A stretch of DNA of 64,000 nt from Alphaproteobacteria bacterium (lineage in GTDB: Bacteria > Pseudomonadota > Alphaproteobacteria > Rs-D84): assembly GCA_017630405.1 (NCBI GenBank), contig JAGBVH010000007.1:6506-70505 (forward strand), in the 5' to 3' direction. Numbering within the stretch: position 1 is the first letter of the stretch; the number at the start of each line of letters is the position of its first letter. The notes under the pieces are model-generated. The model searched no databases, was not told the origin of the DNA, and saw nothing but the letters and a program-made list of their open reading frames with translations. The position numbers were made by a program, and so were the translations under genes. This document shows, one piece after another, positions 1,471-47,724 of the stretch.

Positions 1471-2007
1471 ATGAAAAAATTATTATTCGCAATGTTGGCT
1501 TTTATTGCTGCGATGCCTGTGGCGAACGCGGTTTGTCCTGTTTGTACAATCGCTGTTGGGGCGGGACTTGAAGGTGCACGCCTGATTGGGGTTGAAGATA
1601 TTATTACTGGCATTTGGGCGGGTGGTTTGACTCTGTCTTTGGTGGGTTGGACCGCAAACTATATGCGCAAGCGCGGGGTCAAGGCGCGTATTTGGTATGC
1701 ATTGAACTTTGTTGTATATTACGCGTTGTTGGCGATGGTTTATTTTGTGCCATCTGGCAATCCAATTGTTGTATTTAATGAGTTTTGTATTTGGGGAATT
1801 GACCAGTTTATGTTGGGTGCAATTGTGGGTACTGTTGTGTTCTTTGCTATGCAGGTTTGGTATGAAAGAATCAAAAAAAACAATGGCGGGCATGCCTTGT
1901 TCCCATTCCAGAAGGTTGTTATGCCATTTGGCGGTCTGTTGATTGCTACTTTGATTTTCTGGGCGATTATCAGATGGCTGCCAGAAATCGGTATTGTTTT
2001 GTGCTAA
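1471..2007 (+). CDS. Integral membrane protein of unknown function
   Basis: N-terminal signal/TM segment (MKKLLFAMLAFIAAMPVANA) followed by a CPVC motif and several further hydrophobic segments. An RBS-like aggaaaaaggaag lies upstream. Confidence 0.6.
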   Translation: MKKLLFAMLAFIAAMPVANAVCPVCTIAVGAGLEGARLIGVEDIITGIWAGGLTLSLVGWTANYMRKRGVKARIWYALNFVVYYALLAMVYFVPSGNPIVVFNEFCIWGIDQFMLGAIVGTVVFFAMQVWYERIKKNNGGHALFPFQKVVMPFGGLLIATLIFWAIIRWLPEIGIVLC

Positions 2008-2032: not shown

Positions 2033-2641
2033 ATGAAAAAAGCGAAAAAATTGTCATTAAACGAAATGATCGAACAGGTTGATGCTGCCAAGAAAGTAAA
2101 TCCGTTGGATTTGTCTTCGGACCAGGACTTGTCAATCGCATTGATGAACTTGATTTCATTGGAAGAACACTTCTTTTTCAGTGGGGCCAAGACACAAAAG
2201 ACAAGTTTTTATGACCTGATTAATGTTGTGCGCAATATGCGTAAAGAATTAATGGAACGCATTGTTCAGAAGTCAACCGCAGAAAACGGTGAAGTTTGGT
2301 GTATTTCTAAACATTTGTTGGCGGCTTCTATGCGTTTGATGGAAGTTGGCACCAAGGCTTTGGGCGCAGGTAATACCAAAGATGCGTATGATATGTTTAA
2401 TCGCGCATACGACTTGTATTCTCTGTTCTGGGGATTGAACATGAATCTGATTGATACCACAGGTGTTCAGAAAATCGCACCAGAAGCATATGATGCGGCG
2501 GCTCGTGATAAAGAGTGCAGCATTGATATGGCGCAGAAAACGACAAAGAAATCCAAGGCTGCCAAAGCAGATACAGAAAAATCAACAGTTAAGCGTTTGG
2601 GGGCTTGGGTTAAAAATGCCGTTAACTGCTGCATTGAATAA
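2033..2641 (+). CDS. Hypothetical protein (202 aa, helical, Lys-rich C-terminus)
   Basis: Long ORF with RBS aaggaagg 6-12 nt upstream. It has no competing same-strand ORF and no family I recognise. Confidence 0.55.
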   Translation: MKKAKKLSLNEMIEQVDAAKKVNPLDLSSDQDLSIALMNLISLEEHFFFSGAKTQKTSFYDLINVVRNMRKELMERIVQKSTAENGEVWCISKHLLAASMRLMEVGTKALGAGNTKDAYDMFNRAYDLYSLFWGLNMNLIDTTGVQKIAPEAYDAAARDKECSIDMAQKTTKKSKAAKADTEKSTVKRLGAWVKNAVNCCIE

Positions 2642-2648
2642 TTTGGTA

Positions 2649-2678
2649 TTGATTCCAATTGTTCGAAAATGCTATAAT
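2649..2678 (+). promoter_or_regulatory. Sigma70-like promoter for the Cys-rich protein operon
   Basis: TTGATT (2649-2654), an 18 nt spacer, then TATAAT (2673-2678), about 15 nt upstream of the GTG start at 2693. Confidence 0.5.
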
Positions 2679-2692
2679 GTCATAAAGAGAGA

Positions 2693-5110
2693 GTGAAATT
2701 GAAACATCGCATTATTGATTTTCGTTTGTTAACAGCACTTTTTGCTACGCTGATGGCTTCGTCAGCAGTGGTTGCAGACCAGATGCCTAATCCACGCGGT
2801 GGCACAAATACTGTGGCGCGCGGCAATGCTTCAAGCGAGAAAGAACGCGTTGTGTCACGTGTTGCGGATAACACTGTCCATCGTGTGTCGAATGATGCGA
2901 CTGCCCGTGTGGCAAAAACTGTAAAACCTTCTACGACACGTTCGGTTAAGCGTCAAATGACAGCTATATCTAATCGACCAGATGTTGTGACCGCTCGCGT
3001 TGGATCAATAGGTGTGGTGCGCAGTGCGAATCCTGTCCGTAGCACAACAAGTAATGTGGCGCGCAGCGCAACGAATGTTTCTAATGTGTCGCGTGCGGCA
3101 ACTTCACGCGCGACTGCTGTGTTTAGTGATATTTCAAAAATTGGTGGCGGGTACGCAACATGTCGTGATGCCTATGCTACCTGTATGGACCAATTCTGCG
3201 CAAATGCAAATGATACTTATCGCCGTTGCTATTGCAGTCAAAAGTTCACAGAATTTCGTGATACAGAATTGGTATTGGATGAAGCCAAGAGATTGCTTTT
3301 ACAATTCCAAGATAATAATTTGAACGCTGTTGACAAGACCGCGGCCGAGGTTAATGCAATGTATACAGCAACCGTTGGCGAAGCGGCAATTAAAACTGAT
3401 GTTAGTGGCGCACAGTCTGTATTAAATGAAATTGGCGATTTGCTGTCGGGTAAAAAGGCTGTGTCCAAAGAAACATCGGCATCTGCGTTGGGATTGTTGG
3501 ATGTTGATTTTGGTATGGATATGGAAGATATCTGGTCTGGGGGCTCATCGTCTTCATCGATATTTGGTGGTAATGCTACAACTAATATGGCGGATCTTGA
3601 AGGCGCGGCACTGTACAAGGCTGTAAACACTCAATGTCTTGAGGTTGTGGCATCTGCTTGTGAAAACGATGCCGTGTTAAGTATGGCGACCAATTCATAT
3701 AATATTATGATTACACAGGATTGTAATGCCTATGAAAAGAAGGTGAATACTCAGCGCAAGGCCGTTGAAGATTCTGTGCGTCAGGCAGAAAAATATTTGC
3801 GCGAAGCACGTTTGGACGAATATCGCACACATAACAGTGCCGATGTTAATGAATGTGTGGCCAAGGTTCGTAACGCAATTACACAAGATACAGCATGTGG
3901 CACAAACTATGCACGCTGTTTGGATTATTCAGGTGTTTATATAAACTCTACAACTGGTGAACCTATTTATAGCCCTCGCCTGTTTAAATTGGTTGAGTTG
4001 ATTAAACTGGATGGTTCGGCAGATGTTATGGGCCAGAACGCAGACTTTAATAAATTCTTGGATTCTAAACGCATGTTTGCGACAACAGCATTGGATACTT
4101 GTCGTGATCAGGCAGATATTGTTTGGAACGAATTTAAGCGTAGCGCATTGATTGAAATTGCGCAGGCACAAGATGAAAAAATTGAACAAGTAAAAAATAC
4201 CTGTGTGTCAACAATGGCTGAATGCTATGATACGCAATCTGGTGCTTTAAAGGACTTTAGTGACCAAACAGCGGTTGCGGCTGGTGCTGTATCTGCGTAT
4301 GCAGCACGCCAAATGTGCGCTGACAAGGTTTTGACCTGTGCTGCATTGTATGGCGATACTTCAAATTGCAGATTTGATAATAATGGCAAGTTTACAGGCA
4401 ATCAGGGGTCCTGTGGATTAACAGCGTTGTTGAACTTTGTTGATACAGTTGACACAATCAAGATTAATGACAGTTGTGTTGCTGCGTTACAAGAAAACGC
4501 AAATGAAATATGTACCCCAACATCGGGGGATGGCGTTTATCCTTCGGCGTGCTTTAATAAGTCACAAACGGATATTGAAGGAATGGTAACCAATCGTGCC
4601 GAGCTTGTATGTAATATAGCGGATTTTGGGATTTTGGGTAAAGATATGGAGGCAACTATTAGCAGCACCAAAGACGCGATTGTTCAAAACATTAAGGACG
4701 ATATCGAATCCGCATTGATGGCTGAGTGCGAGGCGCAAAATGGTATTTGGTTCAGCCGCGATGTGGTTGGCGGTGAATCAGAAGAAATTGGCCTGTCGAT
4801 TTTGGAGCCAGAGGCATTGTTCTATACCAAACTGTTTGGTGGCTCGGTGCCAAGTAAGTTTACCGCCAATTCATCTGATGTAAAGCAAGCTTATGGTATC
4901 TGTGCGGAAAATTCAATGCGCTATGCGTGTATGAATCAGGATACAATGACCGGTGGTCATGGATATGCTAAATACGATGCCGCAACAAATAGTTGTGTGT
5001 TCACCAGCGAGTGGTACAAATGGCAGTGTGAAAATGTATTGAACGGCTATTTCGAAAATGAAGTATGTTATTGGAACGCAGAAAATGTTGTCGATGGGGG
5101 TAATGAATAA
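2693..5110 (+). CDS. Large secreted cysteine-rich protein, family member A (805 aa), with an Arg/Ser/Thr-rich N-terminal tract
   Basis: GTG start with RBS aagagagag. Signal peptide LLTALFATLMASSAVVA. Low-complexity tract (VARSATNVSNVSRAATSRATAV). Many Cys residues in conserved motifs are shared with the 34473-36947 product. Confidence 0.8.
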   Translation: MKLKHRIIDFRLLTALFATLMASSAVVADQMPNPRGGTNTVARGNASSEKERVVSRVADNTVHRVSNDATARVAKTVKPSTTRSVKRQMTAISNRPDVVTARVGSIGVVRSANPVRSTTSNVARSATNVSNVSRAATSRATAVFSDISKIGGGYATCRDAYATCMDQFCANANDTYRRCYCSQKFTEFRDTELVLDEAKRLLLQFQDNNLNAVDKTAAEVNAMYTATVGEAAIKTDVSGAQSVLNEIGDLLSGKKAVSKETSASALGLLDVDFGMDMEDIWSGGSSSSSIFGGNATTNMADLEGAALYKAVNTQCLEVVASACENDAVLSMATNSYNIMITQDCNAYEKKVNTQRKAVEDSVRQAEKYLREARLDEYRTHNSADVNECVAKVRNAITQDTACGTNYARCLDYSGVYINSTTGEPIYSPRLFKLVELIKLDGSADVMGQNADFNKFLDSKRMFATTALDTCRDQADIVWNEFKRSALIEIAQAQDEKIEQVKNTCVSTMAECYDTQSGALKDFSDQTAVAAGAVSAYAARQMCADKVLTCAALYGDTSNCRFDNNGKFTGNQGSCGLTALLNFVDTVDTIKINDSCVAALQENANEICTPTSGDGVYPSACFNKSQTDIEGMVTNRAELVCNIADFGILGKDMEATISSTKDAIVQNIKDDIESALMAECEAQNGIWFSRDVVGGESEEIGLSILEPEALFYTKLFGGSVPSKFTANSSDVKQAYGICAENSMRYACMNQDTMTGGHGYAKYDAATNSCVFTSEWYKWQCENVLNGYFENEVCYWNAENVVDGGNE

Positions 5111-5112
5111 AA

Positions 5113-6396
5113 ATGTTGAATATTAATAAAATATTTTTATCAGTTTTTGTAATTGCTTCCTTGGGCGTTGCAGGTTCCGCAGATGCCACATGGCCATCGT
5201 CAGTTAAACAAGAAACATGTTTTGCTCATAGCGGTATTTCAGCGATGACAACGCCGACGGGCATGACTTTTGCGCTTGATAGTGATGCTGGCGATCAACT
5301 TGGTATAAATTTTTATCTGGCCCGTGAGCGCTCTGATAATGGGGCCAAGTTTTGCCCTACTCATGTGATGGCTTGGCGTAAAAATTTAAATGGAAGCAAC
5401 AGTCATCCAAGCCTAGAAAAGTGGAATTATTCCCAATGGGGTGAAGATGAATGTTTTTGGGTTTGTCACGAAGGTTATTTTGGGGAAAAATGTAAGGACT
5501 CGAGTACCAACAATACACCCAAAAGTTGTGCAACTAACACGATTGAACTTGTAAGTGGCGAAAATTTAAATAAGGTTGGAAACGATTCAAAATATACCGC
5601 TGTTAGTGATGGTGTTTGGACCAGAACTTGGGATGAAAATTGTAAAAAAACAGACAAGGCCGCACACAAGGAAGCAAAACATGCTGAAACTTGGGCGGTT
5701 AAGCGAGTGACTAAGGATGGCTTTGGCGTGGTCGTACAGAGTCTGCAGTTCTGGGCATATTGTAAACAAAGCACCAAACAGGAAAAGTGCCGTATCAGGG
5801 TACGGCCTGTTGGCGAAGAAATGGTTATGTGTCAAAATGGGTATACGGTCACAACTGACAAGCAGTCGTGTAAGCCTATTGATGTGCGCGCATGTGGACA
5901 GGCGGTAGTTTGTGATGGATGGGATATTTTTGATGATGCGGACCCACAATATAAACGATATCTGGTGGATGGGGACGATTGCTATAAATATCGTTGTGCG
6001 GAATCGGGTTATGGTTTTGCTGGGACTGCTGTTTTGTCATTGGCAGAGAACCGTAAATGTATCGAATGTCCGACTACATATAAGCAAGGCATTTCCGCAG
6101 ATGGCGTTTGTGAAGTTGCAGAGGCTGGCGAGATTTTCTCGAACGGTGAAGTTGGTACAGCGACTGCAACCAATTCGTCTGAAATGTTACAGTGTTGGAA
6201 TGCTGATGATTTTAAGGCCTGTTTGATAACAGGTGCAACGGATACAACATCAACAACAACCGTTGAAAAAGGTTCTGTGGTTAGCCCAATCATAGCCACT
6301 CCTGTTTTAGGGGGTGCGGGATTGCCTAAAAAGGATATCTTGCTTGATTCTGGGAAACAGATTATCAAGGAACCTATTAATAAGATAACGCTGTGA
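5113..6396 (+). CDS. Secreted cysteine-rich protein (427 aa) with EGF-like Cys spacing and a Thr-rich C-terminal tract
   Basis: ATG lies 2 nt after the preceding stop. Signal peptide FLSVFVIASLGVAGSADA. Motif CFWVCHEGYFGEKC. Tract TDTTSTTTV near the C-terminus. Confidence 0.75.
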   Translation: MLNINKIFLSVFVIASLGVAGSADATWPSSVKQETCFAHSGISAMTTPTGMTFALDSDAGDQLGINFYLARERSDNGAKFCPTHVMAWRKNLNGSNSHPSLEKWNYSQWGEDECFWVCHEGYFGEKCKDSSTNNTPKSCATNTIELVSGENLNKVGNDSKYTAVSDGVWTRTWDENCKKTDKAAHKEAKHAETWAVKRVTKDGFGVVVQSLQFWAYCKQSTKQEKCRIRVRPVGEEMVMCQNGYTVTTDKQSCKPIDVRACGQAVVCDGWDIFDDADPQYKRYLVDGDDCYKYRCAESGYGFAGTAVLSLAENRKCIECPTTYKQGISADGVCEVAEAGEIFSNGEVGTATATNSSEMLQCWNADDFKACLITGATDTTSTTTVEKGSVVSPIIATPVLGGAGLPKKDILLDSGKQIIKEPINKITL

Positions 6397-6403: not shown

Positions 6404-6425
6404 GGGCGCCAAGTGCGCCCTTTTT
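6404..6425 (+). terminator. Intrinsic terminator after the Cys-rich operon
   Basis: Stem gggcgc (6404-6409) pairs with gcgccc (6415-6420), followed by TTTTT. Confidence 0.7.
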
Positions 6426-11913: not shown

Positions 11914-12915
11914 ATGAAATCTTCTGATTTAAAATCATGGTTGAACAGTGGGGCGCACATTATTTATGCGACCACTGGCAGACCATCCAAACATGTGAGC
12001 ACACTGGCGGAAGTGTTTCTGGAATATTATCTGTTTGATGCGGACACACCAAAAACAATCGAAGATTTCTTAACCACCGAAGAACTAAACGATGTTTTTA
12101 CAGCAGACCAGATTATGAATCTGATGTGTGGGCGCGCATGTTTACACAACGATTTAGTCAGCCTGATTCATACTAAGTTGCCGTTTGAAATAAGCCTTGG
12201 GCGACTGTACAAATTAAATGCCAATGCATTCTTGATGGGGGCGGCCGAAATATCCCCCGCCGAGATGGTAAATCTGTCCAAGAAAGAAACTGAAGAAAAA
12301 CAGAAAAAGAAACGAGAAACCAAAGCTGAATACAATCGTAGATATCGTGAAAAACACGCCGATAAAATTAAACAGCAACAGAAAGAATATTATCAGGCCA
12401 ATCGCGAACAACGATTGGCGCGTGCGCGTGCGCGTTATGCTGAAAATCCCGAAACTTTTAGTGCCAGATTACATACATACTATGTGACACATACCGAAAA
12501 ATGTCTGGCGCGTGACAGAAAATATCGACAAGAAAATCATGAGCACATTTTACGCCGTAATCGCGCCTATCGTATCGCCCATCCAGATTCTAATAAAGAA
12601 AACTATCAAAGAATTAAAGCGCGTAAAGAATTAGCCAAAACAATGTGTCCGGTCTTTATGTATATTTGTGAATTGCGCGCCACGAACTTGGAAAAATATC
12701 TGACCAAATATAAAAAAGTTCAGGATATCGCGGGTCAAGCAATCCGCGCTGGCTGTGTGGCACTGGGCAATCAGGACATAACACAATGCCCGATTGTAAT
12801 GGGTGGTGTTTCAAAGCGCACACAATGTCAAATGCAATTGGCGTTTGAATTTCGTGGAGCGGTCGGTCGTGTGGCACAAATCGCCCAAGAAATTAAAGCA
12901 AATCAAAAACACTAA
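11914..12915 (+). CDS. Basic repeat protein with Cys-containing C-terminal domain (paralogue of 10854-11480) plus a unique N-terminal domain
   Basis: RRYREKHADKIKQQQKEYYQANREQRLARARARYAENPE...YYVTHTEK...; MCPVFMYICELRATNLEKYLTKYKK aligns with MCPAFKFVDKIRLANPELYMTKYRI of the first paralogue. Confidence 0.65.
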   Translation: MKSSDLKSWLNSGAHIIYATTGRPSKHVSTLAEVFLEYYLFDADTPKTIEDFLTTEELNDVFTADQIMNLMCGRACLHNDLVSLIHTKLPFEISLGRLYKLNANAFLMGAAEISPAEMVNLSKKETEEKQKKKRETKAEYNRRYREKHADKIKQQQKEYYQANREQRLARARARYAENPETFSARLHTYYVTHTEKCLARDRKYRQENHEHILRRNRAYRIAHPDSNKENYQRIKARKELAKTMCPVFMYICELRATNLEKYLTKYKKVQDIAGQAIRAGCVALGNQDITQCPIVMGGVSKRTQCQMQLAFEFRGAVGRVAQIAQEIKANQKH

Positions 12916-12975
12916 AAGTCACGCCCGAATTTATTCTGGACATTTGTTTTTGTTTTATATAGAATCACACTCATC

Positions 12976-13049
12976 GCGGGCGTAGTATAATGGTAGAACG
13001 AAAGCTTCCCAAGCTTTAGGCGAGGGTTCGATTCCCTTCGCCCGCACCA
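12976..13049 (+). tRNA. tRNA-Gly (anticodon CCC)
   Basis: Acceptor gcgggcg pairs with cgcccgc. Anticodon stem aaagc/gcttt with loop ttCCCaa. T-arm gggttcgattccc. Encoded CCA. Confidence 0.9.
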
Positions 13050-13056
13050 AGAATTC

Positions 13057-13079
13057 AACCGGCATCTCGCCGGTTTTTT
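13057..13079. terminator. Intrinsic terminator after tRNA-Gly (also abuts the stop of the convergent 13078-13680 gene)
   Basis: Stem ccggc, loop atctc, stem gccgg, followed by TTTTTT. Confidence 0.7.
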
Positions 13080-13680
13080 AATACTTCTGTCGTTGATGAC
13101 GACGGTTCATTTCCAATTGCTGGACGGCATTTTTATACTTGCTCACAAGTTTTTGCATTTTGGGTTCGCCGTACAAGGATTTCCAGTCGATAGTATAATA
13201 CTGTTTGTCATAGGGATAAGGATTATGACGAACCAAATAATCCTCGCCGTGATATTTCACAAAGCGATTAATGCGGCTGGCATATCGGACAGAATCACGC
13301 TTAGCTGTTTCTGGTTGTATCAATTCGTAATCTGCTAGATTCAATGAATTTGTGGTTTTTATAGCATCTGCATATGCTGCGGTTAAAATTTCTTTGGTTG
13401 CCTTTGGTGTTGCATCTCGAACTTTCTTGGGCACATAAAGTAAAGTTCCATACAAACCAATCATAGAAACGATAATAAAAGCAGCCAGAACCGCCATTGT
13501 TTCCATTCGTTCTTCGGCTTTGCGCTTTTCTTTCAATTCCTGTACAAATCTGCCGTCACAATCAGAAGACGTTTTTCTTAAACCCCTAAAACGGCGACTG
13601 TGTTTTGGTTCGTTTATTTCTTTATAATGTCGCATCGCCATTATGGCTGCGACCTTTCGTCCCGTATTCATTACCACCAT
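13078..13680 (-). CDS. Hypothetical single-pass membrane protein (200 aa)
   Basis: One TM segment (MAVLAAFIIVSMIGLYGTLLYV). Basic N- and C-termini. No recognisable family. Confidence 0.5.
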   Translation of the reverse strand: MVVMNTGRKVAAIMAMRHYKEINEPKHSRRFRGLRKTSSDCDGRFVQELKEKRKAEERMETMAVLAAFIIVSMIGLYGTLLYVPKKVRDATPKATKEILTAAYADAIKTTNSLNLADYELIQPETAKRDSVRYASRINRFVKYHGEDYLVRHNPYPYDKQYYTIDWKSLYGEPKMQKLVSKYKNAVQQLEMNRRHQRQKY

Positions 13681-32661: not shown

Positions 32662-34080
32662 TTAGGCTTTTTTAACTATTTTATAGCCATCTTTGCCATC
32701 CAATACGGTCCAACCGGCCGCATCGATTTGCGCGCGCAAGGCATCGGCCGTTGTCCAATCCTTGTTGGCCTTGGCCGTGGCGCGTTGGTCTGCCAACGCA
32801 ATAATATTCGCAGGTGCAGATTCATGTTCTAAATCAACCTGTTTTTGTGCCCTGTCCATAAATTGCAAGCCCAGCAATCTGTCAACAAATTCAAATAATG
32901 CTAATTTTGTTGCAGGATTTACAGATGTATCTTTTAACAATTCTTGAACCACAACCAATGATTCTGCAGTTTTCATATTATCAGACGCTGGTGCCAATAT
33001 CTTATCGTGCCATTCGTTATAAATCACAGAATTTAATTCACCCACATTATCACTATTCATTAAATCTGCAATTTTACGAACAATATTTTTATATCCTGTT
33101 GCAGCAGCATCTAATGAATCAAACGAAAATTCCAGTGGCTGACGATAATGACCTTGAAGCAACAGATACCGAAACGCCATTGGATCATAACCACGTGCAA
33201 TTAAATCACGTACAGTATACGCAGTCCCTTCTGACTTTGACATTTTGCCATCTTTCAGCATTAACCAAGCAAAATGCATCCAATACGAAACCCAAGGCGC
33301 CCCAACAATTGGTTCAGACTGTGCGATTTCGTTTGAATGATGAACCTTGGCGTGTTCTTGACCGCCAACATGTAAATCAAAATGCTGTCCCAGATATTTC
33401 ATGCTCATTGCACTGCATTCACTGTGCCATCCAGGAAATCCAACACCCCATGGGCTGTCCCATTCCATCTGACGCTTTACATCGGTTGGTGAAAATTTCC
33501 ATAATGCAAAGTCAGTAGAATTACGTTTGCCTGTATCATCAATACGTGCACCGCCACGCAATTCAGACAAATTTTGTCCGCCCAATGCACCATAGTTCGC
33601 AAATTTAGACGTATCATAATATATACCATCGCCCGGTATTTCATATGTATAACCAAGTGCTTCTAACTTTTTTACTTGCTCTATTTGTTCTGCAATATGA
33701 TCTGTTGCACGTGGCAAGTATGTTGGGCGAATTATGTTTAATAATTCCGCATCGTGTAAAAATCCATCAATATATTTTTGTGCAACATCCCAAACAGACA
33801 TATTTTCACGTGCTGCACCCTTTTCCATTTTATCATCACCACTGTCTGCATCACTTGTCAAATGTCCAACGTCTGTAATGTTTGTAACATGCGTAACATC
33901 ATATCCATTTTCAATAAACACACGTTTGATAATATCACTGTTTACAAAAGTACGCATATTTCCAATATGTGCATCCCAGTATACAGTTGGACCGCATGTA
34001 TAGAAACCCATTTTTCCGGGCGTTAATGGTTTGAATTCTTCCAGTTTTCTGCTCATTGTGTTATAAAGTCTTATCGTCAT
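32662..34080 (-). CDS. cysS: Cysteine--tRNA ligase
   Basis: [18 protein letters not shown] (HIGH), [12 protein letters not shown], and KMSKSEG (KMSKS). Confidence 0.97.
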
Positions 34081-34472: not shown

Positions 34473-36947
34473 TTAAATGCCCTCAGGTACCAATATCAAA
34501 TCTATCACACTGCCATCTGAGCCTTGTTTAGAACAATAATTGGTTATATCATTGTTTGTCCAGCCATCTGGGCAGACCTGACTTCTGTCTGAAATATTGT
34601 CTGTTACAAGCCAAACCGACTCGCTGGTCGCCGGAGCCTCTTTTGGGTACGCCGCCACACACTTGGCAGAATACCCCCACTGACTGCGACGCGCACCATT
34701 TTCCCAACAAGAGCAAATGCCCCATGAAGCAATATCTGTACCCAGTGCATAATCCTTGGGGCACATATTTTCTTTTTCGCCTATGCCATACAAGGACTCA
34801 ATTGTATCACCACCATATGAAGTATTGTCGTTTTCAGTATATAAACATAAATTATCGCTGTCATAGCCAGACTTAATGAACTGCGTTTCAACAAAACGCC
34901 CCTGCAAGTCCATGCATTGTGTGGACAATATGTCAACAATCTGATTGTAAACTTCGGTTGCAACACCCGTTGAACGAATTGCACGATGAGTAACCGTTGT
35001 GCCGTCATCGTGCAACAAGCCATAAAGCAGTTTTGCTTCATTTGCTGTCGATTGCGCCAAATGATATATCGTCTCATTATTATTTGTGTCACTTGTGACA
35101 TACATATAATCCAGACCGCCAAAGGCCGCCTCGACCATTTCTGGGGCACTGCACGCTTCAATTTCTGCCAGATGTTTGGCGCATTCTGATTTGTATGTTT
35201 TTAACTGTGTCCCGTCTTCATTTAGCATCACTTCGTACAGCGTAAACCAATCCGGTGCTTGCCCTGTTCTGAACAGGCCGCTGTACGGATAATAGAAGTT
35301 TTCATAGTTGGTTCCGCCATAACTGTCAAAGCATTGCTTTACAATTGCGCGACACGCCGCCAATGTATCCGCTTCTTGTCTTTCCTGAATATACATAGCA
35401 ATAATGTCGCCATCGAACATATTGTTACAAGATTCGACATAATCCGTACACATTTTGCCAGTCAATGCGATTTTGTCTGGCTGTAATGCCACACTGCCCG
35501 AACCTGACAAACCAGACATAGCAGAAGTTATTGCACCATCGCCATTGATATAACAGGAAGAAACATAGTCAAAACAACCCTGCTTGATTTCATCGACCTT
35601 GGACCGTTGCGCATAGTAAATATCCAGCAATGCCTTGTCCAAATATTCCTGCCATACTATATCCGCATTTTCCACGCACTTGTCCAGCGCATCAGCAGCA
35701 AATTTTTTGGTGCGCGCCTCAAAATTATTTACAAATGTGCGATTATTGGAATTTGATGACAACTTTTGATCGGCGGCTTCAACACCGTCTTTGAACACCA
35801 GCATTTCTTGTAGTTTATAAAAGTCAACCACGCCAGCAATCGGTTTGCCTGTTGATATGTCTATGTATTCGCCATTATCAAGACACTTGTGATAATTTGC
35901 CCCACAAACTTGTTCGCTTAATATTGCCGATTCTACTTCGCTGATACATGTGGCAACATTAGAAGAATTGTGTTTCTGACGGTTTTCTATACGCGCCAAA
36001 TCCAGCATTGCACTACCTTCGCGGACAGCAGCCTTCATTTGTTTTTGAGTATTTTCAATCGCGGTTTGAACTGTATTACAATCCTGTTCTACCGCCATAA
36101 GGTATGCAGTTATGGCCCGTTGAAGCGCAGCATCCGTGCAATCGTTTTTGACCGCCTGACGACATTGAGGATAAACAGCGCTGTAAAGATTTTTACCGTT
36201 ATAAGCCGCGATTGCCTGACCCGCGTCGGTCATTCCAAACGCATTTGCTGTATCAAACGCAATATTTATACTGTTCAAATCCGAGAATTTACCCCCGACA
36301 GTACTGTCTTCACCACGGATAGAGTTCATAATCGCCTGAAGCAGCGCCTTGGATGCAGACTTATCATCAGTTAAGGCATTTTCGCCCTCGGACGCGGTTT
36401 TCATTGCCGCCGCCTGTGCCGCGGTCATACCGACAACATCAAGATTTTCCGTAAAGACCGTTAACTGTTCGCCCGCCTGTTGCAAAACATCGCGCTTGGC
36501 CGCCAAGTCATACACCCTGTCATTACAAGAACAGCGGCGATAATCATCATTTTTTAATGTGCAAAACTGATCCATACATGAAAAGTAAGCATCTTTACAC
36601 TGTTCATATGCCGCACCTGTACGCGTATCAATCGTTGATGTGTCTGTCGCCGCGCGAGATACAGTGCGCGATGTACCCGAGGCACGCAACGCAACAGATG
36701 TACGGGTTGGTGCGGATGGTGTGCGGGTCGCAGCACGGGATACAGTTGTCTGTTTTGTCGCAGCGCGTGGCACAACGACCGTTCCGCGAGCGGTATTTGT
36801 ACGCTTGGTTGTTGTAGAAACACGACTTTGCGTTGTGCGGGAATCATTATTTTTTGTCCTTTGAACCGTTGTCCCATCACGAACAGCAGCGTTGGCAAAA
36901 CCAACGCAAAGCAGTAAATTTGCGGCAAAAAACAGAATTTTCTTCAT
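34473..36947 (-). CDS. Large secreted cysteine-rich protein, family member B (824 aa), paralogue of 2693-5110
   Basis: ATG 36947 (MKKILFFAANLLLCVGFANA signal). R/S/T-rich tract (TVSRAATRTPSAPTRTSVALRASGTSRTVSRAAT). Shared motifs CKDAYFSCMDQFC..YRRCSC, QDCN, CGANYHKCLD and ENADIVWQEY. Confidence 0.8.
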   Translation of the reverse strand: MKKILFFAANLLLCVGFANAAVRDGTTVQRTKNNDSRTTQSRVSTTTKRTNTARGTVVVPRAATKQTTVSRAATRTPSAPTRTSVALRASGTSRTVSRAATDTSTIDTRTGAAYEQCKDAYFSCMDQFCTLKNDDYRRCSCNDRVYDLAAKRDVLQQAGEQLTVFTENLDVVGMTAAQAAAMKTASEGENALTDDKSASKALLQAIMNSIRGEDSTVGGKFSDLNSINIAFDTANAFGMTDAGQAIAAYNGKNLYSAVYPQCRQAVKNDCTDAALQRAITAYLMAVEQDCNTVQTAIENTQKQMKAAVREGSAMLDLARIENRQKHNSSNVATCISEVESAILSEQVCGANYHKCLDNGEYIDISTGKPIAGVVDFYKLQEMLVFKDGVEAADQKLSSNSNNRTFVNNFEARTKKFAADALDKCVENADIVWQEYLDKALLDIYYAQRSKVDEIKQGCFDYVSSCYINGDGAITSAMSGLSGSGSVALQPDKIALTGKMCTDYVESCNNMFDGDIIAMYIQERQEADTLAACRAIVKQCFDSYGGTNYENFYYPYSGLFRTGQAPDWFTLYEVMLNEDGTQLKTYKSECAKHLAEIEACSAPEMVEAAFGGLDYMYVTSDTNNNETIYHLAQSTANEAKLLYGLLHDDGTTVTHRAIRSTGVATEVYNQIVDILSTQCMDLQGRFVETQFIKSGYDSDNLCLYTENDNTSYGGDTIESLYGIGEKENMCPKDYALGTDIASWGICSCWENGARRSQWGYSAKCVAAYPKEAPATSESVWLVTDNISDRSQVCPDGWTNNDITNYCSKQGSDGSVIDLILVPEGI

Positions 36948-37063: not shown

Positions 37064-37150
37064 GCGGATATGGCGAAATTGGTAGACGCGCTAGTTTCAG
37101 GTACTAGTGGTAGCAATACCTTGGAAGTTCGAGTCTTCTTATCCGCACCA
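37064..37150 (+). tRNA. tRNA-Leu (anticodon CAG)
   Basis: Acceptor gcggata pairs with tatccgc. Anticodon loop ttCAGgt. Long variable arm. Encoded CCA. Confidence 0.9.
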
Positions 37151-37155
37151 GTTTT

Positions 37156-37231
37156 GGGGTTGTAGCTCAGTTGATAGAGCGCTACGTTCGCATCGTAGAG
37201 GTCGTGGGTTTGAGTCCCATCAGCTCCACCA
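37156..37231 (+). tRNA. tRNA-Ala (anticodon CGC)
   Basis: Acceptor ggggttg pairs with cagctcc, including G3-U70. Anticodon loop ttCGCat. Encoded CCA. Confidence 0.9.
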
Positions 37232-37237
37232 AGTTTT

Positions 37238-37258
37238 GCCGCGAAACGCGGCTTTATT
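37238..37258 (+). terminator. GC-rich hairpin plus TTTATT between tRNA-Ala and tRNA-Leu(UAA) (weak terminator or processing element)
   Basis: Stem gccgcg, loop aaa, stem cgcggc, followed by tttatt. Confidence 0.35.
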
Positions 37259-37268
37259 AAAAGTCTTC

Positions 37269-37355
37269 GGGGATATGGCGGAATGGTAGACGCTGAGGAC
37301 TTAAAATCCTTTGGTCATTGCGACCGTGTGGGTTCGAGTCCCACTATCCCCACCA
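37269..37355 (+). tRNA. tRNA-Leu (anticodon UAA)
   Basis: Acceptor ggggata pairs with tatcccc. Anticodon loop ctTAAaa. Long variable arm. Encoded CCA. Confidence 0.9.
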
Positions 37356-37374
37356 CACAATTATCTGTATTCTT

Positions 37375-37451
37375 GGATGTGTAGCTCAGCTGGTTAGAGC
37401 GCTTCGTTCACATCGAAGAGGTCGTTGGTTCGAGTCCAATCACATCCACCA
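37375..37451 (+). tRNA. tRNA-Val (anticodon CAC)
   Basis: Acceptor ggatgtg pairs with cacatcc. Anticodon loop ttCACat. T-arm gttggttcgagtccaat. Encoded CCA. Confidence 0.9.
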
Positions 37452-37457: not shown

Positions 37458-37485
37458 AAACCCCGCAAATGCGGGGATTTTCTTT
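37458..37485. terminator. Bidirectional terminator (tRNA cluster / accD-accA)
   Basis: Stem ccccgc, loop aaat, stem gcgggg, followed by ATTTTCTTT and preceded by an A-rich run. Confidence 0.7.
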
Positions 37486-39232
37486 ATATATGCTCGTCCG
37501 AGACATGTTCGGGCTGATATATTTCAACATCACGAGTCATGGCAAAAAACTTGTCATTTCTGCGCGGCTGAATTTCTTCAATCGGAATTTGTTGTAATTC
37601 TGTAATATGTTTTGCCACAGAATTTGCCAATAATTCCATTGTTGTCTGCCAATCAGTATGTGCACCACCCGCAGGCTCTGGGATGATTTCATCTATGACA
37701 TTAAGATTCGCCATGTCGCGCGCTGTCAACTTCATCGCTTTAGCAGCCACAGCCTTGAACTTGTTGTCTTTCCATAAAATGCTGGCACAAGATTCAGGCG
37801 CAATCACCGAATAAATTGCGTTTTCCAGCATCAAAATACGGTCTGCAGTACCAATTGCAATAGCACCACCAGAACCACCCTGCCCCACATTAACGGCGAC
37901 ATATGGAGTCTTGATACCCAAACCGACCGCCATGGAAGCCGCCACAGCCTGAGACTGCCCACGCTCTTCACCTTCGCGGCCTGCGAATGCACCGGCAGTA
38001 TCAAACAATGATATCAATGGTAATTCAAACTTTTCAGCCAATTTCATCATACGCTGCGCCTTGCGATAGCCGTCTGGATTCGGCATACCAAAGCGATGTT
38101 TTTGACGTGTTTCAATTGTGCGGCCCTGTTCCTGACCGATTATAACAGCTGGAATGCCGCGCCAGAATCCGATACCCGACCCCATAGCAGCATCTTCGGC
38201 ATACAGTCTGTCACCAGCCAGATATGTCCAATCATCAACGATGCCATTGATATAGTCCAAGAAGTGCGGACGATTTTCATGACGCGCAAGCAAAACCTTG
38301 TCATAGGCTTCGTTTTCGCCCATACCACGCAACTTTTTAGAAGAATCGTGCACAGGTGTTGTGACGCTAATCTGTTTAGGTTCGCGTGTCTGCTTGGTCA
38401 AAACCGCCAAAATCTTGGCCAATCTCGCTGGCAAGTCTGGACGCGCGACAACCATATCAACCATGCCGTGTTCGTATAAATAATCAGCGGTCTGGAAATT
38501 TGATGGTAATTTTTCGCGAATATTTTGTTCGATAACACGACGACCCGCGAATCCAATACGCGCGCCCTTTTCCGCGATATGAATATCGCCCAGCATCGCA
38601 AACGATGCCGTCACACCACCAAATGTTGGATCAGTTAACAGAACAATATAAGGTATTTTATTCGCATGTAAACGATTAACAGCAGCCGTTGTACGCGCCA
38701 TCTGCATAAGCGACAAGATGTTTTCCTGCATGCGGGCACCACCACTGGATGTGACCATAATAAATGGATGCTTGGTTTCAATTGCGTGTTCCATCGCCGC
38801 AATAATAGCATCACCCGCTGCACGCCCCATAGACCCCATCATAAACAACCCGTTCAAGATACAAACAGTCGCTGGGATTCCACCTATTTCGCCATCAGCA
38901 GAAGTGACCGCATCAAAGCAACCCGTTTCATCACGGGCCGCCGCCAATCTGTCACGATATGCCAATCTGTCTTCGAATTCCAATGGGTCATCAGAAACTG
39001 TCGGCGGGGTTAACTTTTCCCATGTATTATCATCAAACAACAAATCAAATCGCTGTTTTGGGGTCATAATAAAGGCACGACCACAGCGTGGGCAAATGTA
39101 ATGATTTTCTTTGTAATCCTTGGAATAAACCAATCTGCCACAGGATTCACACTTAATCCACATCAGGCGGCGAACGCGGTCATAGCGTTCACGATTGCGA
39201 TTTTTTATTCCAGATTTTTTACCAAACAACAT
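37484..39232 (-). CDS. accD/accA: Acetyl-CoA carboxylase carboxyltransferase, fused beta (AccD) plus alpha (AccA) subunits
   Basis: The N-terminal half has the AccD Zn ribbon (CESCGRLVY...CPRCG) and GGARMQE. The C-terminal half has AccA motifs (ARHENRPHFLDYI, GMPNPDGYRKAQRMMKLAEKF, GQGGSGGA) in one frame. Confidence 0.9.
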   Translation of the reverse strand: MLFGKKSGIKNRNRERYDRVRRLMWIKCESCGRLVYSKDYKENHYICPRCGRAFIMTPKQRFDLLFDDNTWEKLTPPTVSDDPLEFEDRLAYRDRLAAARDETGCFDAVTSADGEIGGIPATVCILNGLFMMGSMGRAAGDAIIAAMEHAIETKHPFIMVTSSGGARMQENILSLMQMARTTAAVNRLHANKIPYIVLLTDPTFGGVTASFAMLGDIHIAEKGARIGFAGRRVIEQNIREKLPSNFQTADYLYEHGMVDMVVARPDLPARLAKILAVLTKQTREPKQISVTTPVHDSSKKLRGMGENEAYDKVLLARHENRPHFLDYINGIVDDWTYLAGDRLYAEDAAMGSGIGFWRGIPAVIIGQEQGRTIETRQKHRFGMPNPDGYRKAQRMMKLAEKFELPLISLFDTAGAFAGREGEERGQSQAVAASMAVGLGIKTPYVAVNVGQGGSGGAIAIGTADRILMLENAIYSVIAPESCASILWKDNKFKAVAAKAMKLTARDMANLNVIDEIIPEPAGGAHTDWQTTMELLANSVAKHITELQQIPIEEIQPRRNDKFFAMTRDVEIYQPEHVSDEHI

Positions 39233-40924: not shown

Positions 40925-40951
40925 AGAACCGCCGATTGGCGGTTTTTTTTT
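40925..40951. terminator. Bidirectional terminator (tRNA-Ser / amiC)
   Basis: Stem aaccgcc, loop gatt, stem ggcggtt, followed by a T-run. Confidence 0.75.
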
Positions 40952-42122
40952 AAACTTCAAAGTTATAATTTTTAACCGAGCGCACAATTGCATCAACCAA
41001 CTTATCCTGATGCGCGGCGGTTTTAAGCAATTTTTCTTCGGATGCATTGGACAGGTGCCCCAATTCCAACAACGCCCCCGGCACAGTTGAACGCAATACA
41101 GCAAATGGCGCATGGCGAACATCAGGCCCTGCCTGTTGTGTAATGGATGCACGCTTGAACGCTTTGGCACAGCCATTGGCGTATTCTTCACTCATTTCCG
41201 CGACCGCATGCTGTTGTAATGAAGACAATGCGATACGGATATTTTCTTCGAATTCAGTAAAGCCCTCTACCCCGATTTTGTCCGCGGCATTTTCAGCCTC
41301 GGCTAGTTTTTTAGCCTCTTCGTCAGATGCTTTTTCAGATAATGTGTATATCGAGAAACCTTTCATCGCGCGACTTGGGTTCGCGTTAGCGTGCAGCGAT
41401 ATGAACAGGTCTGCCTTGCGCTTCTCGGCAATAGCGGCACGATCCGCAAGTTTAAGATAGCGATCATCACTGCGCGTTAGGTGTGTTTTAAAGCCGTTTG
41501 CATCAAGCTTTGTCTTTAACTTGCGCGCAACAGACAAAACAATATCTTTTTCACGAGTTCCGCCCTTGCCTATACAGCCAGGGTCCTTGCCACCATGCCC
41601 CGCGTCCACAACAATTACATATTTGCGCGCCGCAGTTATTGCAGTGGTTGTTGATGCAGTCGAAGTTGTGTATGACGATGAAGCAGTCGATGCATTGTTC
41701 GCACCAGCAACAAAATCCAAAACTAATCGATAGTCATTGTCGCCATTTGGTTCAAGAACCATAATCTGGGACTTTGGAATTTGGGCAATTGATTGTTTTA
41801 AATTCGCTGTAATCTTTAATGTATCGCCGCTCTGTGCCTGTGTCACAGATTTGACCAATCCAGATGAGGCCAGCGATGCTGAAATTCCATTGTTCGCACC
41901 AGTATTTGCCAATGATATAATCAGCTGATTTGGTAAATAGGTCAGATTATATGATGGACGCAAAGCCGTTTCTATAACAAGGCGCGTTTTATTACCAGGC
42001 TGAACACCTGTACGCATACTGCGCAAAGTATTACGCGCAGCAAATGCAACACGTGGCATAGCGGCGAACGCCATAACACCAAATCCTGTGACTTTTAATA
42101 ATGAACGTCTGCTGATTTTCAT
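40950..42122 (-). CDS. amiC: N-acetylmuramoyl-L-alanine amidase (AmiC-like, Tat-exported, AMIN domain)
   Basis: ATG 42122 gives MKISRRSLLKVTGFGVMAFAAMP (twin-arginine signal). VVDAGHGGKDPG...SLHANA...LLELGHLSN are amidase_3 motifs. Confidence 0.85.
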   Translation of the reverse strand: MKISRRSLLKVTGFGVMAFAAMPRVAFAARNTLRSMRTGVQPGNKTRLVIETALRPSYNLTYLPNQLIISLANTGANNGISASLASSGLVKSVTQAQSGDTLKITANLKQSIAQIPKSQIMVLEPNGDNDYRLVLDFVAGANNASTASSSYTTSTASTTTAITAARKYVIVVDAGHGGKDPGCIGKGGTREKDIVLSVARKLKTKLDANGFKTHLTRSDDRYLKLADRAAIAEKRKADLFISLHANANPSRAMKGFSIYTLSEKASDEEAKKLAEAENAADKIGVEGFTEFEENIRIALSSLQQHAVAEMSEEYANGCAKAFKRASITQQAGPDVRHAPFAVLRSTVPGALLELGHLSNASEEKLLKTAAHQDKLVDAIVRSVKNYNFEV

Positions 42123-42171
42123 GGAATATATTATATCAAAAACTGATAATCGGTTCAAGTGCCTTTCAGGA

Positions 42172-42201: not shown

Positions 42202-43452
42202 TTATTTACTTACACAGTTTGCAAATCCCTGCGCGACCAATGATTGCTCGGCCGGAGTCAATTCTGCAACCGGAATCATATAACAGCGTGCGCTATCGCG
42301 AATCACAAAAACTTTGGTCCCGCGAATATATGCCTGTTGCATATCATCTATCTGGGCACTGTTCAAAAATGCGTTAGGCGTTGTGGATTCTTGGACCATG
42401 GCGGCATTAACAACCTGATACGCCATATCATAATTGTACAACTCTGAACGAGATGTGACCTCCATCGCGATACTCTGGTTCGCATATGGATTTTCAACCT
42501 GTTGTTGAGTGTTGGTTGGGTAAGCCGAACCTAACGCCAAAGCAGCAACTGTCTGCAACGCAGTTGAACCATTATTACCTGTTGGATGAGATACTGTATT
42601 CATCTGCTGGTTATCACCACAAGCAAGATTCATACGATTTGTATAACTGGCCAAGACAGCATCAACCGCAGCTTGCCAATCATCGCCCTTGGAATTTAAA
42701 TCAAGCGACACAATCTTGTCCGCCCAACCCCAAATATTTGCACCAACATTACCGGCATTGGCAAAACGGGTCACCATTTCAGCACTGCCCCCTGGGACAC
42801 CAGCGCCACAGGCATCGGTCAACAATGTTTTTAACATACTGTCGGTTTGTGTACCATATGACAACGCAATCGTATGGCACGCCATAGCCGCTTCTAGTTC
42901 GCGACGACGGCTGATACACAAATCAGAACTTGATTTCGCCAACTGATCCGCCATATTCATCATAGACAGATAGGATGTCATTTCCTGTTGGATATACTGT
43001 GGACACAAACGCGCAGCAGTATTCATACCGCCCGTTGCCACATGTGTATTTGTATTATACTGAGGCAGCAGAATATCCGTATCACGCTGCAAACACAGCA
43101 AAGCATAATTATACAATTCGTTTGGTGATGCATATGTACATTTTGGCGCGCTTACCCCCGGAACAACCGCCGTATCACCACAATATTCCGCAAAGCATTG
43201 AAACAATTTCTGACGGCACGCTGTATCAACATCCAACTGGGTCACCATATAGTATGTGTTACGTTGATTTGCCTTGTATGCCTGGGCCAGACCGGCATTA
43301 CCGCGCAAATTTGTACCCGCAGTTGTATTTGTAACCAACGATACGCCGCGCGAAGAGCCATCAGCACCAACAGTACCAGCAGACACCGCGACCGCAGAAT
43401 TACCCAATAAACATGCGCCTATTACACCAAATATACTAAGAAAATGTTTCAT
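42202..43452 (-). CDS. Secreted Cys-containing protein (416 aa), possible distant member of the Cys-rich family
   Basis: Signal peptide MKHFLSIFGVIGACLLGNSAVA. DTACRQKLFQCFAEYCGD resembles CRDAYATCMDQFC of the large paralogues. Confidence 0.65.
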   Translation of the reverse strand: MKHFLSIFGVIGACLLGNSAVAVSAGTVGADGSSRGVSLVTNTTAGTNLRGNAGLAQAYKANQRNTYYMVTQLDVDTACRQKLFQCFAEYCGDTAVVPGVSAPKCTYASPNELYNYALLCLQRDTDILLPQYNTNTHVATGGMNTAARLCPQYIQQEMTSYLSMMNMADQLAKSSSDLCISRRRELEAAMACHTIALSYGTQTDSMLKTLLTDACGAGVPGGSAEMVTRFANAGNVGANIWGWADKIVSLDLNSKGDDWQAAVDAVLASYTNRMNLACGDNQQMNTVSHPTGNNGSTALQTVAALALGSAYPTNTQQQVENPYANQSIAMEVTSRSELYNYDMAYQVVNAAMVQESTTPNAFLNSAQIDDMQQAYIRGTKVFVIRDSARCYMIPVAELTPAEQSLVAQGFANCVSK

Positions 43453-45611: not shown

Positions 45612-45637
45612 AAACCGCCAATTCGGCGGTGTTTTTT
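45612..45637. terminator. Bidirectional terminator (tRNA-Arg / glycosyltransferase genes)
   Basis: Stem accgcc, loop aattc, stem ggcggt, followed by gTTTTTT. Confidence 0.7.
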
Positions 45638-46451
45638 ATCGTGTTATCGGTAGTTTTTCTGGAATTGGCGCACCCGACACTTCATTCGCATAGCAATTTG
45701 GCAAATGACCGATATCTATGGCCTGATAGCCAAGCGCGGCCAAGTCATACGCAAACACAGTCGCCGCAGGGCCACACGCAATCAAAAACAAGCAATCCTT
45801 CGGATAAGATTTGGCCTGTGCCATGACCGCATCATATTCTTCAAACGCATTTTTCGACCCAACCTCGATATGATAATGCTTTTTAATACTTGAAAAAATT
45901 TCTGGTGTAATTTCAAATCGGCCCGCGGACGAATATATAAACACAACTGTACGATCCGCCCATATCTTGCGATATTCCGGAATGCCAGACACTAGAAAAT
46001 CAGAATGTCTTGATATATTTGCATTGGCATAAGTCTCGCGCAGGCGCATCATTGTCAAAATGCTGGGATATCTGGTAAAGTATTCACGAAAGAATCCTGC
46101 CGTTGTTGGACGCGGCGGAATCCCAACCAGACATTTACCGTTTGGATTTTTCAAAATTTGTCGCATGCGGCGTTGCAATTCTGGCGAATTATCCTGATAA
46201 CAAATCTTCTTTTTGCCCAACGCTAAATTAAATTCTCCATCGCCAAGACGCGCCAACGAGGCCCCATTTTGTAATAATTTGACAGTATCTGGGATGCTTA
46301 GCACATTTGGATATGGAAATGGTTTAGAGTATAAAAACCGTTCACGAACCGCACGCCGACCATTGCCCGATGGACAGAACAAAGATGCGACTAATGATAC
46401 CGGCTTCCAAAAATATTTAAGCATAAAAATTTGAAAATTCATTTCAATCAC
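45636..46451 (-). CDS. GT-D type glycosyltransferase (DUF1792 family)
   Basis: SLARLGDGEFNLALGKK is the DUF1792 GDGE motif region. Size is about 270 aa. Confidence 0.65.
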   Translation of the reverse strand: MIEMNFQIFMLKYFWKPVSLVASLFCPSGNGRRAVRERFLYSKPFPYPNVLSIPDTVKLLQNGASLARLGDGEFNLALGKKKICYQDNSPELQRRMRQILKNPNGKCLVGIPPRPTTAGFFREYFTRYPSILTMMRLRETYANANISRHSDFLVSGIPEYRKIWADRTVVFIYSSAGRFEITPEIFSSIKKHYHIEVGSKNAFEEYDAVMAQAKSYPKDCLFLIACGPAATVFAYDLAALGYQAIDIGHLPNCYANEVSGAPIPEKLPITR

Positions 46452-46453
46452 CT

Positions 46454-47359: not shown

Positions 47360-47399
47360 ATCTTGCCCCCGTTTTTTGTATAAAATAAAGACCACAAGA

Positions 47400-47640
47400 T
47401 AGTGGTCGGGGAGTTAAGAAAATCATACGAAAGAATGACCCTGTTGGTTTTCGGGAAGCCCCTGTTGTATAACCAACAGCCCCCCGACATAGCGGGGAGC
47501 GCGGCAGTCATATGGACCGCCACACCAGCGGATTCCGGTGCCAACACAGCACCGCTTTCGTAAGGGATTTCTTAAGTCCCTGACACCTGTTCCCACAGGC
47601 ATCACTACTATCGTACAAGAACGAATTCCTAAAGGCAACT
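47400..47640. ncRNA. Candidate structured RNA / riboswitch-like leader of unknown class (strand unresolved)
   Basis: Visibly GC-richer than its flanks. Nested perfect helices: 47405-47411/47482-47488, 47441-47449/47471-47479, 47536-47541/47549-47554, 47563-47567/47577-47581 and 47586-47590/47595-47599. Only implausible ORFs cover it. Confidence 0.4.
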
Positions 47641-47724
47641 GTTTTTAACAATTAGTATGTCGATACATTTTTCTTGCCCGCGGGGATTGGTTGGTCTAGA
47701 CTTAAACAAAAGGACGAATAGGAA

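Follow-up and report, generated by a model that had tools for sequence, protein, structure and literature searches.

Comparison with described systems

Streptococcal M protein and comparable fibrillar stalk-plus-tip proteins combine a conserved helical stalk with a strain-hypervariable, recombined distal part and high expression. These proteins of Gram-positive bacteria form dimeric coiled coils without Cys and are held by a C-terminal LPXTG anchor. The protein considered here is encoded at positions 2693-5110 (forward strand) of a 64,000-nucleotide stretch of alphaproteobacterial DNA (GenBank assembly GCA_017630405.1, contig JAGBVH010000007.1, positions 6,506 to 70,505; this whole stretch is referred to as the window, and coordinates are those of the window unless another contig is named). 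It is the 805-amino acid (aa), Cys-rich, secreted product of an intact open reading frame (ORF) and, in a mechanistic comparison drawing on general knowledge, it would work most like these fibrillar stalk-and-tip surface proteins. In contrast with M protein, its variable head is C-terminal, its putative anchor is basic and N-terminal, and its stalk bundle has conserved Cys; the 805-aa sequence ends ..CYWNAENVVDGGNE, with neither an LPXTG motif nor a hydrophobic tail.

The chlamydial proteins OmcB and OmcA offer a second likeness, being Cys-rich proteins that a reduced-genome bacterium exports by Sec to its envelope; the basic N-terminal segment of OmcB binds polyanions. OmcB is β-rich, whereas the 805-aa family is modelled as all-helical, has no PDB match and gives no match to a chlamydial Cys-rich Pfam family at E≤1. 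The variant-specific surface proteins of Giardia and the Cys-rich coats of gut parasites are likewise disulfide-rich and variable, with a proposed resistance to gut proteases, and the heads of some members of the 805-aa family carry CxxCPxGxYCxGG-type repeats. The Giardia proteins differ in being eukaryotic, anchored by a C-terminal transmembrane segment and rich in CXXC motifs; the conserved module of the 805-aa family has no CXXC pattern and no Pfam match. Trimeric autotransporter adhesins share the head-and-stalk layout on a Gram-negative surface, but they have a C-terminal β-barrel and YadA-type domains, of which the 805-aa protein has neither (nor has it a Pfam match), and its model is a helical bundle.

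Enterousia, of the uncultured alphaproteobacterial order Rs-D84, to which the window is assigned, has genomes of less than about 1 Mb and is without a tricarboxylic acid cycle, respiratory chains and standard transporters; its lifestyle is suspected to depend on a partner (PMC12306168). Enterousia and its relatives, with their sub-megabase genomes, are widespread in the guts of humans, ruminants, birds and insects. That genomes so tiny keep two ~2.4-kb genes of this family, with a conserved promoter, makes it likely that these proteins are central to the build of the cell or to its contact with the surroundings. The family is undescribed and combines a helical fold without a PDB counterpart with a striking pattern of a conserved core and variable ends; variable secreted or surface proteins are a known kind. 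The reading that we favour, while holding it a little short of probable, is that of an abundant, exposed tail-stalk-head envelope protein under diversifying selection, and here we infer localisation and function alike.

A large family from gut Alphaproteobacteria

A word-indexed search, in which 8,000 candidates were scored, returned at least 1,109 homologues of the 805-aa protein at E≤0.001, the top 120 of which cover 81-100% of the query (most of them more than 95%) at 48-98% identity. When 1.84 billion cluster representatives were searched exhaustively with a profile, 800 clusters at 50% identity were collected (382 at E≤1e-30), and a scan of one genome per species placed relatives in at least 584 species genomes. 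The sequence-only reading, which had presented the protein as the founding member of a paralogous family, was mistaken on that point. It had also considered that homologues might turn out to be both widespread and already annotated: widespread they are, but every name given among the matches listed is "hypothetical protein". The sources are metagenome-assembled genomes labelled Candidatus Enterousia, uncultured Alphaproteobacteria or Rickettsiales, from the rumen, the colon, humans (Hadza), chickens and other guts.

The earlier suggestion that the architecture belongs to no characterised family has held against Pfam, NCBIfam, the sequences of the PDB and Foldseek (for which see below). The 805-aa protein has no Pfam match at E≤1 and nothing meaningful in NCBIfam; its paralogue, introduced below, has a chance-level Pfam match only (E=0.077, below the cut-off) and nothing in NCBIfam; and nine long relatives, of up to 1,176 aa, match nothing in Pfam significantly. 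(DUF7631, which came up for the long relatives at 21.9 bits, was rejected as falling under its 27-bit cut-off.) Among PDB sequences the best hit of the orthologue profile is at E=2.2 and the family profile has none. The literature on Enterousia and Rs-D84 yielded nothing on this protein family. As judged from these searches, it is a large, real and undescribed family, encountered so far only in metagenome-assembled genomes of gut Alphaproteobacteria. Its working definition is a signal peptide, an Arg-rich tail, and a stalk with 16 invariant Cys that include C-x6-C-M-D-x-x-C and R-C-x-C.

The window encodes a second member at 34473-36947 on the reverse strand, an intact ORF whose product has 824 aa from its ATG or 831 aa from an upstream TTG. 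Both proteins fit the family profile (E=1.4e-169 and 2.4e-123), with which no third copy was found in the 64 kb. By BLASTP, residues 61-553 of the 805-aa protein match residues 27-511 of the other at 32% identity over 512 aa (E=1e-57), which bears out the proposed paralogy and its conserved Cys spacing. The alignment, said to run along most of the length of the two proteins, is real, but it takes in only the N-terminal ~62%; the C-terminal ~250 aa of the 805-aa protein stay unaligned with the paralogue. Every motif quoted in support is present in both: the Cys block as CRDAYATCMDQFC..YRRCYC in one and CKDAYFSCMDQFC..YRRCSC in the other, QDCN and CG.NY..CLD...TG.PI in common, and DQADIVWNEF and ENADIVWQEY as equivalents. 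Each protein also starts, as had been noticed, with a signal peptide, of Sec type (..AVVA/DQ and ..FANA/AV, the slash marking the cleavage site), followed by a low-complexity tract rich in R, S, T, A and V that has the word SRAAT in both.

The paralogue heads an orthologue group of its own, with at least 899 matches at E≤0.001 and identities of 56-99% among the 120 matches listed, and the two types occur together on one 933-kb contig. Since the orthologue groups are separate and both types are found on a single contig, the duplication appears to be older than much of the diversification of the group. Kinship with the 805-aa family was also considered for the proteins encoded at 5113-6396, 42202-43452 and 59604-64000 and is not detectable.

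Tail, stalk and head

The domain plan (Table 1) was read from an alignment of 41 orthologues and another of 115 diverse family members. Export by Sec and cleavage of the signal peptide would leave a protein in three parts: tail, stalk and head. The N-terminal hydrophobic segment and the xQAPNPR with which the mature protein starts are conserved across the 41 orthologues; the signal peptide ends ..SSAVVA/DQMPNPR and the first Cys is residue 157, so that the protein is not of the lipoprotein type. Mean identity to the window protein among these orthologues is 86% in the junction, 69-79% in the stalk, 37% in the head and 31% in the tail.

The tail is made of degenerate [VA]-[AS]-R-[AS]-A-[TA] words, which recur about 10-16 times at a spacing of 4-10 residues. 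(Tandem repeats at the DNA level were looked for and there are none; the repetition is degenerate and confined to the protein.) The tail consists mainly of Ala (21%), Ser (14%), Arg (13%), Thr (12%) and Val (11%), with almost no Lys, and the number of Arg stays between 13 and 17 in 40 of the 41 orthologues. The mean net charge of the tail is +11.6, against about -18 for the stalk segments together and a mean of -15.8 for the head (-22 in the window protein). At ~105 aa, ~15 Arg and a charge of about +12, the tail could hold the protein on anionic lipopolysaccharide, on peptidoglycan-associated polymers or on membrane lipids. The stalk (~400 aa) would be an elongated helical bundle fixed by ~8 conserved disulfides, the conserved structural core of the protein, and the head (~245 aa), together with the co-transcribed 427-aa protein described below, would form an exposed, fast-changing end that meets phage, host immunity, a partner cell or a substrate.

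It is chiefly in the head that members of the family differ, some having as many as 1,176 aa or 70 Cys; the repeats already referred to in some of these heads are common to a giant protein that is also encoded in the window (59604-64000, described at the end of this account). A constant N-terminal module with C-terminal modules that vary would suit a different kind of protein as well, one released as an effector or toxin, or for nutrient capture, that acts on neighbouring microbes or host cells, its Arg-rich tail binding or penetrating membranes and its head setting specificity. Arg-rich tracts do bind anionic surfaces. The host appears to be partner-dependent and is without standard transporters (PMC12306168), which would agree with such a role. 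Pfam, sequence searches and Foldseek, however, find no toxin, enzyme or pore-forming fold, neither an immunity gene nor a secretion system is nearby, and the role sits poorly with the synteny and core status of the gene and with its strong, conserved promoter of housekeeping style; we consider it improbable.

Cysteines

Sixteen Cys (residues 157, 164, 169, 179, 181, 315, 323, 344, 388, 402, 409, 470, 504, 511, 542 and 549) are invariant in all 115 members of the diverse alignment, five of them in the junction, and the mature protein has exactly 28 Cys in 41 of 41 orthologues. Mature Cys counts are even in the other Cys-rich secreted proteins of the window too (28, 20 and 12). Cys makes up 3.1-4.7% of these secreted proteins, as against mostly 0-1.3% of the annotated housekeeping proteins of the window. 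Structural disulfides are classically recognised by a Cys count that is both even and invariant, and we infer that disulfides form.

So many Cys might instead serve mainly in metal binding or redox chemistry, the protein being a buffer for metals or redox state in the periplasm. The bacterium lives in an anaerobic habitat and has no respiratory chain to drive oxidation of the DsbB type (PMC12306168); moreover, a conserved membrane protein with a CPVC motif is encoded upstream. Set against this are the even, invariant count itself (28 in every orthologue), conserved blocks in which there are no CxxC, CxxCH or His-rich metal motifs, and the failure to match any metalloprotein family, and such a buffer seems very improbable. 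For the exposed envelope protein that we favour, the many disulfides would have the added merit of resisting gut proteases.

Predicted fold

A full-length AlphaFold model built on the 41 orthologues scored poorly (predicted local distance difference test, pLDDT, 60; predicted template-modelling score, pTM, 0.35), with a disordered tail and a head that reaches pLDDT 75-90 at residues 590-800. It had no Foldseek match and was set aside for a model of the conserved module, residues 140-600, based on the 115 diverse members. The latter (pLDDT 84.4, pTM 0.66) is all-helical, with helices of up to 55 aa, apart from a tiny hairpin at the invariant YINxxTGEPIY. The C-terminal 245 aa make up a Cys-rich domain of mixed α/β type without a terminal aromatic residue, unlike the β-barrel translocator of autotransporters.

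Searched with Foldseek, the pLDDT-84 model has best E-values of 1.3 in the PDB and 0.58 in BFVD, and template-modelling (TM) scores of at most 0.23 among the 50 matches listed for each library. Likenesses to ciliary inner proteins, flagellin, exocyst subunits and pyocin S5 came up and were dismissed as the generic noise of long helices (E>1, TM<0.25). As far as the PDB search and Foldseek can tell, the predicted helical fold is absent from solved structures, and the family thus offers a confidently modelled helical fold without a PDB match.

Conserved core and variable ends

Two contigs from one ENA sample, L082 and L084, have the gene order of the window and are 99-100% identical to it over most of ~30 kb. 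In this setting the 805-aa gene and its downstream neighbour stand out as mosaics (Table 1). The stalk regions are 94-100% identical in nucleotide sequence between strains, 3751-4200 excepted, and the 427-aa protein has only 28% protein identity to its L082 counterpart (12367-13668), the flanking genes being ~99% identical. Control secreted genes, for the LysM protein and an AmiC-like amidase, show 99% identity in the same comparison.

Synonymous divergence (dS) is 0.54-2.1 in the variable blocks, as against 0.01-0.13 in rsmH, the PFK gene, the LysM-protein gene and dnaK; the variable alleles have therefore been imported by recombination and have not arisen by local decay. The ratio of nonsynonymous to synonymous divergence (dN/dS) ranges from 0.23 to 0.39 in these blocks and is lower in the stalk, at 0.07-0.14. 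Among 52 species, divergence of the head follows that of the downstream gene (partial Mantel r=0.56, p=0.001, controlled for stalk and RsmH), which divergence of the tail barely does (r=0.15). In the exposed envelope protein that we propose, recombination would exchange alleles of head, tail and partner gene among strains while the stalk stays fixed. A locus that varies in this way between strains could be used in strain typing.

The comparison of strains also brought to light an additional gene in L084 (5642-7534), encoding a 631-aa Cys-free protein between tRNA-Leu and tRNA-Val, that is missing from the corresponding place in the window (~37365, in the tRNA cluster at 37064-37451).

Proposed position in the envelope

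An exposed position is favoured because the conserved stalk, the variable head and partner gene, the basic tail and the conserved expression signals together resemble what is seen in major surface proteins. An export signal is present and no domain of cytoplasmic type is, which supports the same reading.

A number of observations nevertheless weigh against it. An outer membrane is expected in an alphaproteobacterium, and we know of no route across it for a helical protein that is folded and has nothing but a Sec signal; no β-barrel, autotransporter or secretion-system gene is found near the locus and the protein has no lipobox. The dN/dS values, all below 1, do not demonstrate positive selection. 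Head and partner gene are adjacent, so that a single recombination tract could explain their co-variation without any interaction between them. Nor is mosaicism specific to surface genes, since the centre of cysS (32707-34056, reverse strand; L084 11052-12476) has been replaced as well: its identity is 61-74% in nucleotides and 66% in protein between strains that are otherwise ~99% identical, the first 19 codons being identical and the last ~60 nearly so, and it looks like an internal recombinational replacement. A single-copy, syntenic orthologue with a fixed Cys count also fits a housekeeping role in the envelope. Lastly, the host is without a respiratory chain (PMC12306168), which makes it hard to see how 14 disulfides would form in each protein.

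Several of these points would be met by a periplasmic structural protein, a rod between the two membranes with its basic tail on peptidoglycan or membrane lipid, serving as spacer, tether or disulfide-cross-linked scaffold and comparable to the chlamydial Cys-rich envelope proteins. The Sec signal, with no visible way through the outer membrane, would then suffice, and a core single-copy gene beside rsmH in 79 of 80 species, with its fixed Cys count, is what one would expect. Among the products of the window are also a LysM protein and peptidoglycan amidases, one of which has a Tat-like signal with an AMIN domain; we take these as signs of a normal periplasm. What such a rod gives no obvious reason for is the exchange of head, tail and partner-gene alleles between strains whose other secreted genes are 99% identical, and the head repeats that some relatives have in common with the giant Listeria-Bacteroides-repeat protein are of a domain type typical of surface proteins. 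We regard the periplasmic rod as unlikely, though well worth keeping in view; it would still be a new kind of envelope scaffold, if of narrower interest.

If the protein is instead surface-exposed, as we favour, it becomes a target for antibodies, labelling and enrichment of this uncultured lineage. A bolder proposal, and something of a long shot, is that the family, its hypervariable Cys-rich partner and the CPVC membrane protein make up a lineage-specific surface apparatus, a disulfide-stapled stalk with an exchangeable tip, for attaching to and living off a partner organism or the host mucosa, and that a new oxidative-folding route, one that needs no respiratory chain, would supply its 14 disulfides.

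Expression signals and neighbouring genes

In a synteny comparison of 80 species loci, the 805-aa gene lies downstream of rsmH in 79, and by position and profile it is a syntenic core member of its family. No supporting evidence was found for a link to the cell-division gene cluster, which the position after rsmH had brought to mind. Translation probably starts at TTG 2699 and not at GTG 2693, a two-residue correction that makes the product 803 aa long, because the ribosome-binding site AGAGAGAG overlaps the GTG and the N-termini of orthologues line up better with the TTG. A TTGATT-N18(TG)-TAnAAT promoter-like element at a fixed distance from the start, and an AGAGAGA ribosome-binding site in the same position, are present in all 76 species loci examined; signals so strongly conserved would suit an abundant structural protein.

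The promoter and terminator attributed to the gene by the sequence-only reading were recovered as the promoter-like element and, beyond the second gene, a hairpin with a T-run (Table 1). The two-gene operon with a second Cys-rich secreted protein stands for the window, where a 2-nucleotide gap separates the genes, and is common without being general: a downstream gene turned up in 59 of the 80 loci, at just 20-32% identity, and L081 lacks it. Read from its sequence, the arrangement of promoter, terminator and operon is well supported for the genome of the window. Only the C-terminal part of the 427-aa protein (CYKYRCA.SGYGFAG ... LPKKDILLD) is conserved.

Table 1. Positions of the described features in the window (aa, amino acids; nt, nucleotide)
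Feature	Position	Strand	Basis or extent
178-aa membrane protein, upstream neighbour, CPVC straight after signal peptide	1471-2007	+	42/80 loci
202-aa protein, upstream neighbour, no signal peptide, ends NCCIE	2033-2641	+	65/80 loci
Promoter-like TTGATT-N18-TATAAT, extended -10 TG	2649-2678	+	best match of region, 10/12
Ribosome-binding site AGAGAGAG	2686-2693	+	sequence; kept in orthologous loci
Cys-rich secreted protein gene	2693-5110	+	ORF; 805 aa, probably 803 aa
Signal peptide, aa 1-28, predicted cleavage AVVA/DQ, no lipobox	2693-2776	+	sequence
Polycationic disordered tail, aa 29-133	2777-3091	+	pLDDT <35
Junction, aa 134-182, SRAAxARATAVFxDxSKIGGGYxxCRxAYxTCMDQFC..YRRCxC	3092-3238	+	most conserved segment
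Helical stalk, aa 183-560, common to paralogue and whole family	3239-4372	+	AlphaFold and alignment
Acidic Cys-rich variable head, aa 561-805	4373-5107	+	alignment, charge
Strain comparison: signal peptide and tail	2701-3000	+	69-70% nt identity
Strain comparison: junction and first part of stalk	3001-3750	+	94-100% nt identity
Strain comparison: mid-stalk	3751-4200	+	84-91% nt identity
Strain comparison: distal head	4651-5100	+	69-78% nt identity
Strain comparison: whole downstream gene	5101-6300	+	52-63% nt identity
427-aa secreted protein, downstream gene, 20 Cys, EGF-like motifs, hypervariable	5113-6396	+	ORF; 2 nt past stop
Intrinsic-terminator-like hairpin GGGCGC-CAAGT-GCGCCC, then TTTTTATT	6404-6420	+	sequence; 3' of second gene
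Paralogue, 824 aa, 28 mature Cys, tail-stalk-head plan	34473-36947	-	ORF and BLASTP
Strain comparison: paralogue aa 1-610	within 34473-36947	-	~99% nt identity
Strain comparison: paralogue head, aa 614-814	within 34473-36947	-	60-81% nt identity

Of the two upstream neighbours, the 178-aa protein has its CPVC and NGGHA motifs each conserved to at least 90% and, on inspection of its sequence, four predicted transmembrane segments after the signal peptide. It is lineage-restricted, with at least 691 homologues that have hypothetical names only among the 120 matches listed, and has no match in Pfam or NCBIfam; of the two periplasmic Cys pairs that mark DsbB and VKOR oxidoreductases, it conserves just the CPVC one. 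Encoded shortly before the 28-Cys protein, it is a candidate for thiol-disulfide chemistry or the handling of metals; any functional link between the two is speculative. The 202-aa protein, which sits between rsmH and the Cys-rich gene, has no Pfam, NCBIfam or PDB match; its NCCIE ending recurs in those orthologous loci that have readable 3' ends. Homologue and PDB searches with the upstream neighbours were uninformative.

Other genes of the window

The window is otherwise of housekeeping character, with dnaK, rpoD, cysS, recN, obg, tRNAs and a transfer-messenger RNA (tmRNA), and has a GC content of ~43%. Further Cys-rich secreted products are encoded in it. One is the giant protein at 59604-64000 (forward strand), which runs off the end of the window at more than 1,465 aa and has 13 Listeria-Bacteroides repeats and, at both ends, CxxCPxGxYCxGG-type modules; the other, at 42202-43452 (reverse strand), has 416 aa and 12 mature Cys, with no Pfam match. 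Directly downstream of the latter, in the same orientation, lies the gene for an amidase (40950-42158, reverse strand) with a Tat-like signal, a weak AMIN match (just under the Pfam cut-off) and an Amidase_3 domain.

Three glycosyltransferase genes, of the GT-D fold (DUF1792 type), GT8 and GT61, are found at 45636-49399. Pairs of GT-D and GT8 enzymes glycosylate serine-rich surface proteins in streptococci; a link of this cluster to the Ser/Thr-rich tails would be pure speculation. A 586-aa Lon-like protein encoded at 52383-54143 (forward strand) has substrate-binding, AAA and lid domains without the protease domain, and the ORF next to it (54143-54520) has no Pfam match. At 37484-39232 (reverse strand), a single 582-aa gene product fuses carboxyltransferase subunits of AccD type (Carboxyl_trans, with a zinc ribbon) and AccA type, the domains having been called on the L084 orthologue. 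The tmRNA gene, at 51682-52036 (forward strand), encodes the tag peptide AANDNVRLAMAA and is marked by ARAGORN with an asterisk, which we take to denote a permuted two-piece tmRNA, a form known from Alphaproteobacteria.

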